Shown piece after piece: positions 3,929 through 27,530 of a DNA stretch of 64,000 bases. This stretch comes from a phage: the sequence record PZ452609.1. The stretch is one strand, 5' to 3'. The translations under genes were made by a program, and so were the position numbers. Below the pieces are notes generated by a model. That model did not search any database. It was not told where the DNA came from and saw only the letters and a program-made list of their open reading frames with translations. How positions within the stretch are numbered: the stretch's first letter is position 1; every line of letters begins with the position of its first letter.

Positions 3929-5275
3929 ATGAGTTCGAATATCTTCAGACTTGCTGATAGATTATTCAACCAACCTTTACTAGCCACTGAATCATTAGCT
4001 CACTCAGCAGCAACTTATGTGAATAACAGATTGCTGGGTGATGTCCAAGCAGCAGTAAACTTTGATAAACCCAAAGGTGACGCAAGAAGTCTTTTAAAAG
4101 TAAAAGATGACATTGCTATTATCCCTATTATGGGTGGTTTAACCCATCGTATGACATTCATTGATGCAATGTGTACAGGTGGATTAAGCTCTTATGAAGG
4201 TTTGCGTAGAGGCTTTGACGAAGCTTTAGCAGATGAGTCAATTAAGACTATCGTTCTGCACATTGATTCTGGTGGTGGTGAAGCTTCAGGTTGCTTTGAA
4301 TTAGCACGTCACATTATGGCTTCAAGAGGCCAAAAGAAAATTATTGCTTATGTAGATGAGTTCGCTTGTTCCGCTGCATACGCTCTTGCATCTTCTGCTG
4401 AAGAAATTATTGCATCACCAGATGCAGATGTTGGTTCTATTGGTGTAATCATGGTTCATCAGGAATTAACTAAGGCATTTGAAAAGAATGGCGTAACAAT
4501 TAACGTCATCAAAGCTGGTGAGTTTAAAGGTATGGGTTCACCATTCCAAGCACTCTCAGAAGAAAGCAAAGAAAGACTTCAAAAGAGAATTAATGATACC
4601 TACGCAACCTTTACAGGTTTTGTAGCCGAATCTCGTAATCTCTCTGAAGAAGCTGTAAAGAATACTGAGGCGAATGTTTATTCTGCTCAGGAAGCTCTTG
4701 AACTTGGTTTAATTAACTCAATCATGTCTCAAGATGATTTCTTAAATTACTTACAAGGTTCTGAAGAGGCTCCTGTAAGTTTAAACGTTAACAATTCAGG
4801 TGAAGAAATGACTGAACAAGAAAAGCAAGAACTAGAGGCTTTGCGTCTTCAGGTTGCTCAAATGAAAGCCAAAGAACAGGAAGCTGCTTTGTCAGATTTG
4901 ACTAATAAGATTTCTGCTTCTGCTGAAGCTTTTGGATTTGATGCAAAAGAAGCTGCAACGACTATTTTAGGTGCTGGTCTTGATAACCCTCTGAGTGTTC
5001 TGTTTATGAATGCTATGGAAGGTGCTAACCAGAAACTTAATGAAACTATCGCGTCCCATGCTTCTGCAATGGAAGAAAAAGAATCAGAAATTACCAAGCT
5101 GAAAGAAACTGCTGGTGCTGTTCTTGAGCATTCTAATGCTATGGAAGAAATGGGTAATAACGGTGAAGCTGATTTGGTTGAAGAAGAAAAAGAACCAGCT
5201 AAGAATGCTTCCGAAGACACCGCTGAACAACGCAAACTGGCTCTCCAGAATGCTCTAAAATCTCTTATCAAATAA
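3929..5275 (+). CDS. prohead protease (S49/ClpP-type serine peptidase) with C-terminal coiled-coil scaffold-like tail
   Basis: IVLHIDSGGGEASG ... FACSAAYALASSAEEI ... SIGVIMVH motifs typical of SppA/S49; acidic Glu/Ala-rich coiled coil at C-terminus. Confidence 0.7.
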   Translation: MSSNIFRLADRLFNQPLLATESLAHSAATYVNNRLLGDVQAAVNFDKPKGDARSLLKVKDDIAIIPIMGGLTHRMTFIDAMCTGGLSSYEGLRRGFDEALADESIKTIVLHIDSGGGEASGCFELARHIMASRGQKKIIAYVDEFACSAAYALASSAEEIIASPDADVGSIGVIMVHQELTKAFEKNGVTINVIKAGEFKGMGSPFQALSEESKERLQKRINDTYATFTGFVAESRNLSEEAVKNTEANVYSAQEALELGLINSIMSQDDFLNYLQGSEEAPVSLNVNNSGEEMTEQEKQELEALRLQVAQMKAKEQEAALSDLTNKISASAEAFGFDAKEAATTILGAGLDNPLSVLFMNAMEGANQKLNETIASHASAMEEKESEITKLKETAGAVLEHSNAMEEMGNNGEADLVEEEKEPAKNASEDTAEQRKLALQNALKSLIK

Positions 5276-5697: not shown

Positions 5698-6804
5698 ATG
5701 TTGACTAATTCTGAAAAAAGCAGATTTTTCCTTGCTGACCTTACTGGTGAAGTCCAGTCTATCCCAAATACTTATGGGTATATTTCCAACTTAGGTCTGT
5801 TCCGTTCAGCACCAATCACCCAAACTACTTTCCTTATGGACTTGACTGATTGGGATGTTAGCTTGCTTGATGCGGTAGACCGCGATAGCCGTAAAGCAGA
5901 GACTAGCGCACCTGAGCGTGTTCGTCAAATCAGCTTCCCAATGATGTACTTCAAAGAAGTTGAAAGCATTACTCCTGATGAGATTCAGGGTGTACGTCAG
6001 CCAGGAACTGCAAACGAACTGACTACTGAAGCTGTAGTACGTGCTAAGAAGCTGATGAAGATTCGTACCAAGTTCGATATTACTCGTGAGTTCCTGTTTA
6101 TGCAAGCTCTGAAGGGTAAAGTTGTTGATGCTCGTGGTACTCTGTATGCTGACCTGTACAAGCAGTTCGACGTTGAGAAGAAGACTGTTTACTTCGACCT
6201 TGACAACCCTAATGCTGACATTGACGCTGCTATTGAAGAACTGCGTATGCACATGGAAGACGAAGCTAAGACTGGCACTGTAATCAACGGTGAAGAAATT
6301 CACGTAGTTGTTGACCGCTTATTCTTCAGCAAACTGGTTAAACACCCTAAGATTCGTGACGCTTATCTTGCACAGCAGACTCCGCTGGCTTGGCAACAGA
6401 TTACTGGTTCTCTGAGAACTGGTGGTACTGACGGCGTTCAGGCTCACATGAACACTTTCTACTACGGTGGTGTTAAGTTTGTCCAGTACAACGGTAAGTT
6501 CAAAGACAAGCGTGGTAAGGTTCACACTCTGGTGAGCATTGATAGTGTAGCAGCAACTGTTGGTGTAGGTCATGCTTTCCCTAACGTTTCTATGCTGGGT
6601 GAAGCTAACAACATCTTCGAAGTGGCATATGGTCCATGCCCTAAGATGGGTTATGCAAATACACTTGGTCAGGAACTGTACGTATTCGAATACGAAAAAG
6701 ACCGTGACGAAGGTATTGACTTTGAAGCTCACTCTTACATGCTGCCATACTGCACACGTCCTCAGTTGCTGGTAGACGTTCGTTCTGACGCTAAACCAGA
6801 CTAA
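5698..6804 (+). CDS. major capsid protein (putative)
   Basis: 368 aa, strong RBS, position after prohead protease; size typical of HK97-fold capsid. Confidence 0.6.
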   Translation: MLTNSEKSRFFLADLTGEVQSIPNTYGYISNLGLFRSAPITQTTFLMDLTDWDVSLLDAVDRDSRKAETSAPERVRQISFPMMYFKEVESITPDEIQGVRQPGTANELTTEAVVRAKKLMKIRTKFDITREFLFMQALKGKVVDARGTLYADLYKQFDVEKKTVYFDLDNPNADIDAAIEELRMHMEDEAKTGTVINGEEIHVVVDRLFFSKLVKHPKIRDAYLAQQTPLAWQQITGSLRTGGTDGVQAHMNTFYYGGVKFVQYNGKFKDKRGKVHTLVSIDSVAATVGVGHAFPNVSMLGEANNIFEVAYGPCPKMGYANTLGQELYVFEYEKDRDEGIDFEAHSYMLPYCTRPQLLVDVRSDAKPD

Positions 6805-6825
6805 TATTCTTAAGGAGGGTTATGA

Positions 6826-8155: not shown

Positions 8156-8729
8156 AAAAGGTCTAGTTAGAACCTTAGTGGATGTTATTGGTCACAGACT
8201 AGCTCGTGATAAAAATAATAGACCAAATGTAATTAGAGCTTACCCTTCTGATAACTCAAATGACAAAGGTTTAAAACCTGACCAGCCATTTATTACCGTA
8301 TATTGTCAAGATGCTGCAACACCTTATGGTTGGGTTCTTGATAAGTTTGTTGAGGATGATGTAGTTTGCTACAGAATTGCTTTTCAGATTCCAGTATTAA
8401 TTACGGTAAATGGTAAAGGTGCTCACAGTATTATGCTTGAGCTTAAACAACGATTAGAGATGAGTTCAGTCAGAGATTTAATTCTTGAAGAGACAGGAGC
8501 TACAGTTTTAGACACTGGAGCTATCCCGAATGACTATACCTATCTCAATACAGATTTCGAAAATTCTGCGCCTCTTGTTGTAACTCTTGTAAAAAATTCA
8601 GTCCTGAAAGATGAACGTGGGGGAATTATTGAACGTGTCATTGTTGATGGTGAATTAGTTTACGAAGAAGGACAAGAGCCACCAGAATATACTATCCATC
8701 TAGATGTAGACTCCAAAGGGGTAAAATAA
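8130..8729 (+). CDS. tail completion/neck protein (putative)
   Basis: position immediately upstream of sheath. Confidence 0.35.
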   Translation: MQLETAELEKGLVRTLVDVIGHRLARDKNNRPNVIRAYPSDNSNDKGLKPDQPFITVYCQDAATPYGWVLDKFVEDDVVCYRIAFQIPVLITVNGKGAHSIMLELKQRLEMSSVRDLILEETGATVLDTGAIPNDYTYLNTDFENSAPLVVTLVKNSVLKDERGGIIERVIVDGELVYEEGQEPPEYTIHLDVDSKGVK

Positions 8730-10097: not shown

Positions 10098-10544
10098 ATG
10101 GCTATGTATCAGCAATATTCCCCTAAAGACGTTGTGTGTAGCTGGAATGGTATTGCCATTGAAGGCTTTGCCCCAGACTCATTCTTACGTCTACAGAGAA
10201 CATCACCACTTGTGACACCAGTTGTAGGTGCAGGTGGTCAAGTTGCTCTGACAAGAAATGCAGACAAGACAGGTACTATTGAGATTGAGCTAATGCAGAC
10301 TTCTCTCTCTAACCAGATGCTTTCTGCAATTCAAGCTAAACAAGACAATATGGAACTTGAAGAAGATATCTCTTCTAACTTCGTAATCTACGACCCATCA
10401 GGCTCTGTTCTGGCAACTGGTATTAATGCTTGGTTGCAGGAATTACCACAGATTGAACTTGGTCGTGACCAGAACTCTAAAACTTGGATTTTTGGTTGTG
10501 AGAAGCTAGACTACACTTCTACAATTCCAGCGTCAAGTGTTTAA
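10098..10544 (+). CDS. tail tube protein (putative)
   Basis: 148 aa, follows sheath, followed by strong terminator. Confidence 0.55.
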   Translation: MAMYQQYSPKDVVCSWNGIAIEGFAPDSFLRLQRTSPLVTPVVGAGGQVALTRNADKTGTIEIELMQTSLSNQMLSAIQAKQDNMELEEDISSNFVIYDPSGSVLATGINAWLQELPQIELGRDQNSKTWIFGCEKLDYTSTIPASSV

Positions 10545-11258: not shown

Positions 11259-16642
<5,384 letters not shown>

Positions 16643-27089: not shown

Positions 27090-27134
27090 AATGACCTCAA
27101 AGTTATATTAAATTTTGTATTACATTGAGTATAA

Positions 27135-27181
27135 AAATAAGCTATAACACCTGACTTGTCAACAGATTTTATAGCTTATTT
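27135..27181 (-). terminator. 13-bp perfect inverted repeat (aaataagctataa / ttatagcttattt), terminator-like on - strand and operator-like
   Basis: stem 27135-47 / 27169-81, 21-nt loop containing ttgaca on - strand; followed on - strand by U-rich tail. Confidence 0.4.
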
Positions 27182-27205
27182 GGCAGATTTTTTATAAGGC
27201 TACTG

Positions 27206-27270
27206 CCATCCTTCCATACCAAACCCGACCTTACCTCACCTTATCTTACCTTACCCCACCCTACCAGACC
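27206..27270. repeat. tandem pentanucleotide array (NNACC)x13 on + strand, nearly G-free
   Basis: atacc aaacc cgacc ttacc tcacc ttatc ttacc ttacc ccacc ctacc agacc read directly. Confidence 0.8.
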
Positions 27271-27348
27271 TCATTAAAAGACCCTCTTCAAAGACCTTTT
27301 AAAAAGGTAAGTCTCATTTTAATGTAGCTGAGACTAACTACCCATACT

Positions 27349-27428
27349 GTACCGCACCTGACCCGACCTGACCAGACCTAACATTACCGTGCCACACCGT
27401 ACCGAACAGAACACTGCCATACCTCACA
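27349..27428. repeat. second tandem pentanucleotide array (NNACC)x16
   Basis: gtacc gcacc tgacc cgacc tgacc agacc ... acacc gtacc ... atacc; each array followed by a hairpin with conserved loop ACCCTCTT. Confidence 0.75.
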
Positions 27429-27495
27429 TCACTTAAAAACCCTCTTAGAAGACTCTTAAGTGATGCTGGTGAGTACCCGTTGGTTTATGCTGCTC

Positions 27496-27523
27496 AGTAT
27501 ACTCACCAAATTTTCTATGTCAA
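27496..27523 (-). promoter_or_regulatory. near-consensus sigma70 promoter TTGACA-N16-TATACT on - strand
   Basis: - strand reads ttgaca tagaaaatttggtgag tatact; fires leftward into repeat region. Confidence 0.5.
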
Positions 27524-27530
27524 CAACTTT

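Follow-up and report, generated by a model that had tools for sequence, protein, structure and literature searches.

The window, the 64-kb stretch of DNA analysed here, belongs to a Felix O1/wV8-like Felixounavirus, and the locus under study occupies its minus strand between a DNA ligase gene and the gene for a 127-aa protein (Table 1). An earlier note, made from the bare sequence, had described the gap of ~590 bp between these genes as lacking a convincing ORF. That description has to be given up: a conserved 48-aa hydrophobic ORF (phrog_22006) follows the ligase gene, just outside the segment on which the note had focused. The ORF is probably a real small membrane-protein gene, since it differs from its wV8 copy mostly by synonymous changes; it is absent from phage SUSP1 and several relatives. 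Past the ORF lies a compact unit in which a promoter is followed by two modules, each made of a hairpin, a tract of pentanucleotide repeats and a structured tail. We call the two modules vrRNA-B and vrRNA-A, after the RNAs of the VIPR system to which they proved homologous.

Table 1. Features of the locus and its flanking genes, in the order in which they are met along the minus strand.
Feature	Position	Strand	Details
DNA ligase gene	28817->27681	-	
48-aa hydrophobic ORF MFSTVILFILVVFVLSYIASKLLDTSFAMGVLFTIFCFVTHIAIRTFI	27677->27531	-	directly after the ligase gene; phrog_22006, E = 2e-32
Entire locus	27523->27135	-	promoter, leader/hairpin 1, array B, tail T1, hairpin 2, array A, tail T2, inverted repeat
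Promoter TTGACA-16-TATACT, sigma-70-type	27523->27496 (27496..27523)	-	11/12 match; predicted start near 27489
Leader of ~60 nt ending in hairpin 1	27466->27427	-	18 bp, 3-nt loop, G-U pairs; -17.7 kcal/mol, z = -6.1
vrRNA-B repeat tract	27428->27344	-	17 in-register (G/U)G(U/C)NN pentamers
Array B units			TGTGA GGTAT GGCAG TGTTC TGTTC GGTAC GGTGT GGCAC GGTAA TGTTA GGTCT GGTCA GGTCG GGTCA GGTGC GGTAC AGTAT
vrRNA-B guide dinucleotides			GA AT AG TC TC AC GT AC AA TA CT CA CG CA GC AC AT
vrRNA-B 3' tail, class T1, 34 nt: GGGTAGTTAGTCTCAGCTACATTAAAATGAGACT	27343->27310	-	hairpin AGTCTCA/TGAGACT and pseudoknot GTAG/CTAC
Leader hairpin 2, homologous to hairpin 1	27306->27271	-	13 bp, 3-nt loop; -7.1 kcal/mol, z = -1.2, weak alone
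vrRNA-A repeat tract	27270->27216	-	11 in-register pentamers
Array A units			GGTCT GGTAG GGTGG GGTAA GGTAA GATAA GGTGA GGTAA GGTCG GGTTT GGTAT
vrRNA-A guide dinucleotides			CT AG GG AA AA AA GA AA CG TT AT
vrRNA-A 3' tail, class T2, 35 nt: GGAAGGATGGCAGTAGCCTTATAAAAAATCTGCCA	27215->27181	-	hairpin TGGCAG/CTGCCA and pseudoknot AAGG/CCTT
13-bp perfect inverted repeat, then T-run	27181->27135	-	arms 27181-27169 / 27147-27135; z = -5.5; terminator-like unit end
127-aa protein gene	27089->26706	-	

The repeats set this locus apart from the remainder of the window. GGT recurring at period 5 scored 9 of 10 at the locus, against a maximum of 3-5 in 200 shuffles of the window; no score of 4 or higher was found elsewhere in the window on either strand, and periods 4, 6 and 7 of GGT in the window gave nothing comparable. 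The two GGTNN arrays described earlier are thus real and in register on the minus strand, with their extents revised to 17 and 11 units. Array A runs on into GGAAG GATGG, and both of these units are part of the tail. Searches of the whole window returned no Rfam match and, with ARAGORN, no tRNA or tmRNA gene. CRISPR-type repeats of ~24-48 nt with spacers were not found either, as a tandem-repeat finder and reading of the sequence showed only 5- and 10-nt periodicity. In the GenBank records of relatives the element is annotated only as “repeat_region”, as “DR_4” or, in phage KhF3, as “possible binding site of StbAB”, and the genome papers of Felix O1, wV8 and UAB_Phi87 leave it undescribed.

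The near-consensus promoter noted earlier was borne out, being kept in 27 of the 29 related loci that we examined, and the identical promoter TTGACA-16-TATACT lies upstream of SUSP1 vrRNA1. An 8-bp inverted repeat (GGTGAGTA ... TACTCACC, 27468-27507, minus strand) overlaps the -10 box with one arm and has its second arm in the leader predicted to be transcribed; it could be an operator or a chance match. The hairpins were confirmed in part. Both fold, and since they do so with a 3-nt loop, the conserved AAGAGGG motif that had been placed in the loops lies outside them, in the 3' stem arm, where it is partly G-U paired. Hairpin 1 stands directly 5' of repeat tract B, and its sequence recurs before SUSP1 vrRNA1 and, in many related loci, before one vrRNA; because of the G-U pairs in its stem, it would be functional only as minus-strand RNA. 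Hairpin 2 stands directly 5' of repeat tract A and is kept before most internal vrRNAs of the related loci. In these loci a 5' hairpin of one of two homologous forms precedes every vrRNA, and it might serve as a signal for processing or delimit the Vipr filament; no role for it was found in sections of the discovery preprint or by a term search of the structural preprint on VIPR (both cited below).

At the other end of the unit, the inverted repeat with its U-rich tail is as described earlier, and the SUSP1 and wV8 loci end in the same inverted-repeat sequence. It is not a typical terminator: because it is A+T-rich with a 21-nt loop, a terminator scan made no call. Within the loop of the inverted repeat lies a second promoter-like site, TTGACA-17-TATTTT (10/12; 27162->27134, minus strand), which faces the 127-aa gene, so that the vrRNA unit overlaps at its end with the beginning of the following gene (27134-27162).

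VIPR is a system of RNA-guided DNA recognition that was reported only in 2026, in preprints, and has been proposed to be older than CRISPR. As described in the discovery preprint, it consists of Vipr (a ~20-kDa RAMP homologue), an accessory vap and vrRNAs, each vrRNA being made of 9-16 YNNGG repeats and a conserved tail that forms a pseudoknot in the SUSP1 clade (bioRxiv 10.64898/2026.04.26.720920). The same preprint states that the dsDNA target is encoded in the NN dinucleotides, one base being skipped per repeat, and that a satellite phage is the target for 18 of the 20 vrRNAs of the SUSP1 clade with identifiable targets (10.64898/2026.04.26.720920). Escherichia phage SUSP1, which carries a type II VIPR, is the model in both 2026 preprints, and its RNAs are documented there by sRNA-seq, co-purification with Vipr, reporter silencing and cryo-EM (10.64898/2026.04.26.720920, 10.64898/2026.04.26.720927). 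A small RNA of ~100 nt co-purifying with Vipr is shown in the discovery preprint only for SUSP1 and P. fulva (10.64898/2026.04.26.720920). According to the structural preprint, cryo-EM places one protomer on each repeat, with GGY flipped into protein pockets, of which the Y pocket admits pyrimidines only (10.64898/2026.04.26.720927). Each SUSP1 GGY is held by one or two Vipr protomers, and the NN pairs form a gapped dsDNA guide (10.64898/2026.04.26.720920, 10.64898/2026.04.26.720927).

SUSP1 and the window phage are both Ounavirinae, and the correspondence between their loci is close. The segment 27525->27430 of the window is the same sequence as the promoter, leader and hairpin of SUSP1 vrRNA1 (almost identical overall), tail T1 of vrRNA-B recurs unchanged in two SUSP1 downstream vrRNAs, and tail T2 of vrRNA-A is identical to that of the last SUSP1 vrRNA. 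The 195-aa protein of SUSP1 has the residues H17, E71, M72, R138, C173, D177, W178 and R179 listed in the structural preprint and is 97.9% identical to wV8 gp096. With these residues and this identity, wV8 gp096 (195 aa) is, judged by sequence, Vipr, and gp095 (146 aa) is Vap1. The whole module occurs twice in wV8, flanking vipr-vap (gp096, gp095), with a 58-bp direct repeat annotated as DR_4. No Pfam family was found for Vipr, Vap1, the 127-aa protein or the 48-aa protein. Four other candidate identities were dropped on comparison with SUSP1 and with the literature, namely a binding site for a TRAP-like ring protein (dropped when this comparison identified the vrRNA), an R-loop origin suggested by the G-rich non-template strand, Chi-like or Shine-Dalgarno-like arrays, and a type III antitoxin RNA.

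We parsed 29 related loci, in which every vrRNA consists of a hairpin, 10-21 GGYNN units and a tail of one of four classes (T1, T1b, T2, T3). Across 62 unique arrays from the related loci, the five positions were G in 78%, G in 98% and T or C in 100%, followed by two mixed positions. The 5-nt periodicity, whose presence in related phages the earlier note had proposed as a check, is therefore conserved. Among 16 distinct tails, 91.5% of the cells of the hairpin and pseudoknot are paired, with changes on both sides in 9 of 11 pairs; none of 500 shuffles reached the observed values, and sliding the partners by 1-3 columns left 28-38% paired. The tail hairpin and pseudoknot are thus supported by covariation. 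Overall, the earlier proposal of a non-coding minus-strand RNA locus, running from promoter to terminator and with a functional 5-nt periodicity, is supported. In the second vrRNA of phage Bas63 (L150), the pair GGTTA GGTAT occurs about five times in a row, in a tract lengthened to 18 units, which looks like a slippage expansion.

A scan of IMG/VR with the pattern (GGTNN)5GGT returned about 120 or more contigs. Many of them come from unrelated phages, where degenerate GGYNN arrays count 11-17 units, frequently follow one another in tandem and frequently lie immediately 5' of an ORF. A profile seeded with wV8 gp096 detected a Vipr homologue in the fetched flank of 29 of the ~120 contigs. Since these loci were found by their repeat pattern and encode a Vipr homologue, the association between array and Vipr reproduces independently of the literature. 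Another class of GGTNN repeats in IMG/VR (L008, L013, L024, L028, L030, L050-L052, L067, L087, L090, L094 and others) has a near-fixed GGTTAGGTTAGGTAAGGTTAGGTTAGGTAAGG, lies inside ORFs of ~250-300 aa with other short direct repeats before it, and does not resemble a vrRNA.

The guides of the window can be read against a parasitic phage satellite of E. coli. This element of ~11 kb carries recombinase, HTH, tape-measure and baseplate-hub genes and is present in ~474-502 of 5,426 E. coli genomes. At the DNA level, its hub gene shares up to 95.8% identity with window positions 13507-14050, which are the N-terminal ~545 nt of the baseplate-hub gene in the phage. Under the name “phage baseplate protein” this satellite gene occurs in ~474 E. 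coli chromosomes (represented by L143-L147 and L153-L157), and the satellite, which is very mosaic, is inserted at lafU/dinB, yciI/tonB or yecN/yecD. The satellite was found via its hub gene, and we scanned ten variants of it under the 1-nt-skip rule. For vrRNA-B, 30 of 34 NN positions match at 8383-8433 of one satellite (L156), in frame within the coding sequence of a 185-aa gene; the skipped base falls on the codon wobble position, and the homologous site matches at 27-30 of 34 positions in six satellites. For vrRNA-A, 20 of 22 positions match at 10477-10509 of another satellite (L157), where the match spans both the ribosome-binding site and the ATG of a 236-aa gene. None of 1000 unit-shuffled guides reached 30/34 for vrRNA-B or 20/22 for vrRNA-A, and skip lengths of 0, 2 and 3 gave only noise in the same scan. 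Searched against the window itself, the two guides showed no self-target (fractions 0.59 and 0.73).

Two of the satellites carry a vrRNA of their own, on the minus strand of their loci (L154, ~4619-4954; L155, ~6477-6812), and neither has a Vipr gene. These single vrRNAs have a sigma-70-like promoter, 12-13 GGYNN units, a T3-type tail and a canonical terminator, and one of the T3-type tails shows compensatory changes in its hairpin. A satellite that has a vrRNA and lacks Vipr implies that the use of a helper's Vipr in trans already occurs in nature. Against the window and Bas63 the satellite-borne guides matched only at noise level (at most 17/22), and there is therefore no sign that satellites target the helper phage.

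What the window locus lacks is the protein half of the system. Between the ligase gene and the 127-aa gene it contains neither vipr nor vap, whereas wV8, SUSP1 and about half of the relatives have both in the middle of the locus. With the wV8 Vipr and Vap as queries, tblastn found neither gene in the 64-kb window (best E 0.65-3.3), which covers the genome up to its last ~23 kb. A profile of 29 diverse Viprs, run against all window ORFs of at least 50 aa, gave a best E of 0.41, compared with 4e-61 for the wV8 control. In the vipr+ records listed and in all 17 parsed vipr+ loci, vipr occurs once per record and at this same locus. The O157 typing phages 1 and 12, to which the window is most closely related overall (~97% identity), both carry vipr.

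The same orphan layout was found in humlepung, Bas63, fBSPA4, UAB_Phi87 and five IMG/VR contigs, as well as in JK55 (three vrRNAs) and FSL SP-010 (one vrRNA). Bas63, whose genome is complete, lacks Vipr throughout and has a single GGY-periodic locus. Among 231 phage records that hold the region, only ~118, all Ounavirinae, gave a Vipr hit, which leaves ~113 without; the orphan state apparently occurs in roughly half of Felix O1-like phages, as judged from these records. Orphans are more frequent among Salmonella-named phages (~58/75) than among Escherichia-named ones (~38/115; Fisher p = 2e-9). Beyond the phages, blastn of the vipr gene found no match in 5,426 E. coli genomes, and therefore no close host-encoded Vipr; a profile search of 10 satellites found none either (best E = 0.11).

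The vrRNA with a T3 tail always abuts vipr and is absent from every orphan locus, and a single crossover involving repeated tails or hairpins would be enough to turn a vipr+ locus into any of the orphan architectures (T1+T2; T2 alone; T1+T1b+T2). Arrays classed as orphan have a GGY fraction of 0.80 and linked ones 0.76 (p = 0.5), and 11 of the 12 loci classed as orphan retain an intact promoter; both tallies count as orphan the locus L138, a truncated piece of the vipr+ phage VpaE1. In the comparison of guide targets, which treats L138 as vipr+, 13 of 20 orphan guides and 35 of 48 vipr-linked guides reached an NN match of at least 80% in satellites; in 97 kb of flanking chromosome, one guide of each group did.

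Taken together, these results make it highly probable that the locus holds two SUSP1-clade vrRNAs aimed at an E. coli satellite; vipr and vap were presumably lost by recombination, and the guides would need Vipr supplied in trans to have any effect. On this reading, one strong minus-strand promoter would serve both vrRNAs, each of which would comprise a 5' hairpin, a GGYNN tract and a pseudoknotted 3' tail; for the window phage, their transcription and processing are predicted from the resemblance to SUSP1. As with the near-identical SUSP1 RNAs, a Vipr protomer would occupy each pentamer with GGY flipped out, and the exposed NN would pair with dsDNA, every third base being skipped, so that the target gene is silenced. 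The window guides would be directed at the ~11-kb satellite, vrRNA-B at the 185-aa gene and vrRNA-A at the 236-aa gene. The loss of vipr and vap would have proceeded by homologous recombination between repeated elements of the vrRNA scaffold, the 58-bp DR_4 of wV8 being such a repeat. This would have left the guide pair intact and probably still transcribed, with a co-infecting vipr+ relative as a possible source of Vipr. A still-transcribed recombination scar is the most likely account of the orphan state. One observation goes against it: useless guides would be expected to decay, and no decay is seen in the GGY positions, the promoters or the share of guides on target.

This lack of decay is where a different account of the orphan state begins, namely that a vrRNA pair without Vipr is maintained, its guides either riding free on the Vipr of a co-infecting Felixounavirus or serving as a decoy that titrates or redirects the Vipr of a rival, by analogy with phage-encoded RNA anti-CRISPRs. 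We consider such a role possible though rather unlikely. The ~113 of 231 region records without a Vipr hit suggest a common and persistent state, the arrays, promoters and tails of orphans are as intact as linked ones and their guides equally on target, and one identical guide is common to the orphans humlepung, Bas63 and JK55, which come from three countries. The satellites L154 and L155, with a vrRNA bearing a phage-type T3 tail, promoter and terminator and with no Vipr, likewise imply borrowing in trans. However, the intactness is equally explained by recent and recurrent deletions combined with gene flow from vipr+ relatives, and one orphan guide of UAB_Phi87, nearly the same as a linked guide, fits such gene flow. 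The excess of Salmonella-named orphans is in keeping with a relaxation of selection in the absence of the E. coli satellite, and the 5,426 E. coli genomes offer no close vipr DNA from which Vipr could be supplied. A decoy, moreover, would have no obvious beneficiary, as the guides target the satellite and not other phages.

Readings that dispense with VIPR altogether fare worse. The earlier note had suggested that the G2N3 periodicity forms two-quartet G-quadruplexes and that the AAGAGGG hairpins act as a Shine-Dalgarno-like sponge for ribosomes or proteins, which now appears very improbable. Two-tier folding of G2N3 is possible in principle when Vipr is not bound, but the conserved motif is GGY rather than GG: position 3 is a pyrimidine in 100% of the 62 arrays, which a quadruplex does not need and which fits the purine-excluding pocket of the cryo-EM structure, where the GGY of SUSP1 is flipped out in Vipr. 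Target information that agrees with the 1-nt-skip code resides in the NN positions, and AAGAGGG sits in a predicted stem and not in a loop. The note's other suggestion, an origin or packaging element, belongs with the wider idea of an element acting at the DNA level (a replication origin, a packaging signal or a binding site for a partition protein), and we regard this as the least probable of the readings weighed here. The locus is intergenic, stands beside replication genes and has a strand-asymmetric, G-rich non-template strand, and the KhF3 annotation names StbAB. Nothing points specifically to an origin or to packaging, however; the G-U pairs and compensatory changes make sense only in an RNA of one strand, the homologous SUSP1 sequences were detected as Vipr-bound small RNAs according to the preprints, and in wV8 the module is duplicated around vipr-vap.

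The kind of element is therefore known, from the 2026 preprints only; the novelty lies in its occurrence without the protein and in how often this is seen. In a term search of the discovery preprint, orphan or stand-alone vrRNAs came up nowhere in the main text; because the discovery pipeline started from Vipr proteins, orphan vrRNAs were invisible to it. Reading of the raw sequence alone picked out an element that was later identified as a VIPR guide RNA. The window adds vrRNA genes without an effector gene, apparently present in about half of Felix O1-like phages, whose guides still carry valid anti-satellite codes, and this leads to a testable question, whether they are scars, shared guides or decoys. 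The “DR_4” repeat region, long unexplained, can now be labelled by genome annotators. Should the orphan state prove to be a maintained strategy, which we think is the less probable outcome, it would constitute an RNA-only free-rider or anti-VIPR layer in the conflict among phages and satellites, including in Bas63, a model phage of the BASEL collection.

Compared with the vrRNAs of SUSP1, those of the window share the promoter, leader hairpin, GGYNN tract of 9-16 or more units, pseudoknotted tails and terminal inverted repeat, the position of the locus between the DNA ligase gene and the phrog_4332 gene, and guides that target an E. coli satellite by the 1-nt-skip code. Unlike SUSP1, the window has no vipr (phrog_4652) or vap1 (phrog_5926) at the locus or elsewhere in its 64 kb, and it has two vrRNAs with new guide dinucleotides where SUSP1 has one plus three. 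A parallel for a vrRNA without Vipr is found in the satellites L154 and L155, whose vrRNAs are mentioned in the discovery preprint: they too have a phage-type tail, and Vipr is encoded neither in the satellites nor in the 64-kb window. The satellite vrRNAs are single, have their own promoter and a canonical terminator, and meet a Vipr-encoding helper by design, whereas the carrier of the window vrRNAs is itself a helper-type phage.

Resemblances also extend to systems outside VIPR. CRISPR crRNAs combine a variable part with a constant handle and work with proteins of the RAMP fold, and orphan CRISPR arrays without effector genes occur. The vrRNA guides similarly have a variable part and a constant handle, and here too the cognate gene is missing; unlike CRISPR, they have no repeat-spacer layout, and their information is interleaved, two nucleotides in every five, with a gap at every third base of the target. 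Phage-encoded RNA anti-CRISPRs are solitary repeat units, and a decoy-like part for the window vrRNAs is suggested by analogy with them only. The binding site of TRAP in the Bacillus trp leader consists of (G/U)AG triplets with 2-nt spacers, in ~11 or more in-register repeats that each engage one subunit. The vrRNA tract has the same plan of a triplet plus two nucleotides, repeated in register with one protein subunit per repeat. It differs from the TRAP site, which is bound by an 11-mer ring and acts in attenuation, in that its motif is GGY, its protein forms a RAMP filament, its spacers are informative and its context is not one of attenuation.
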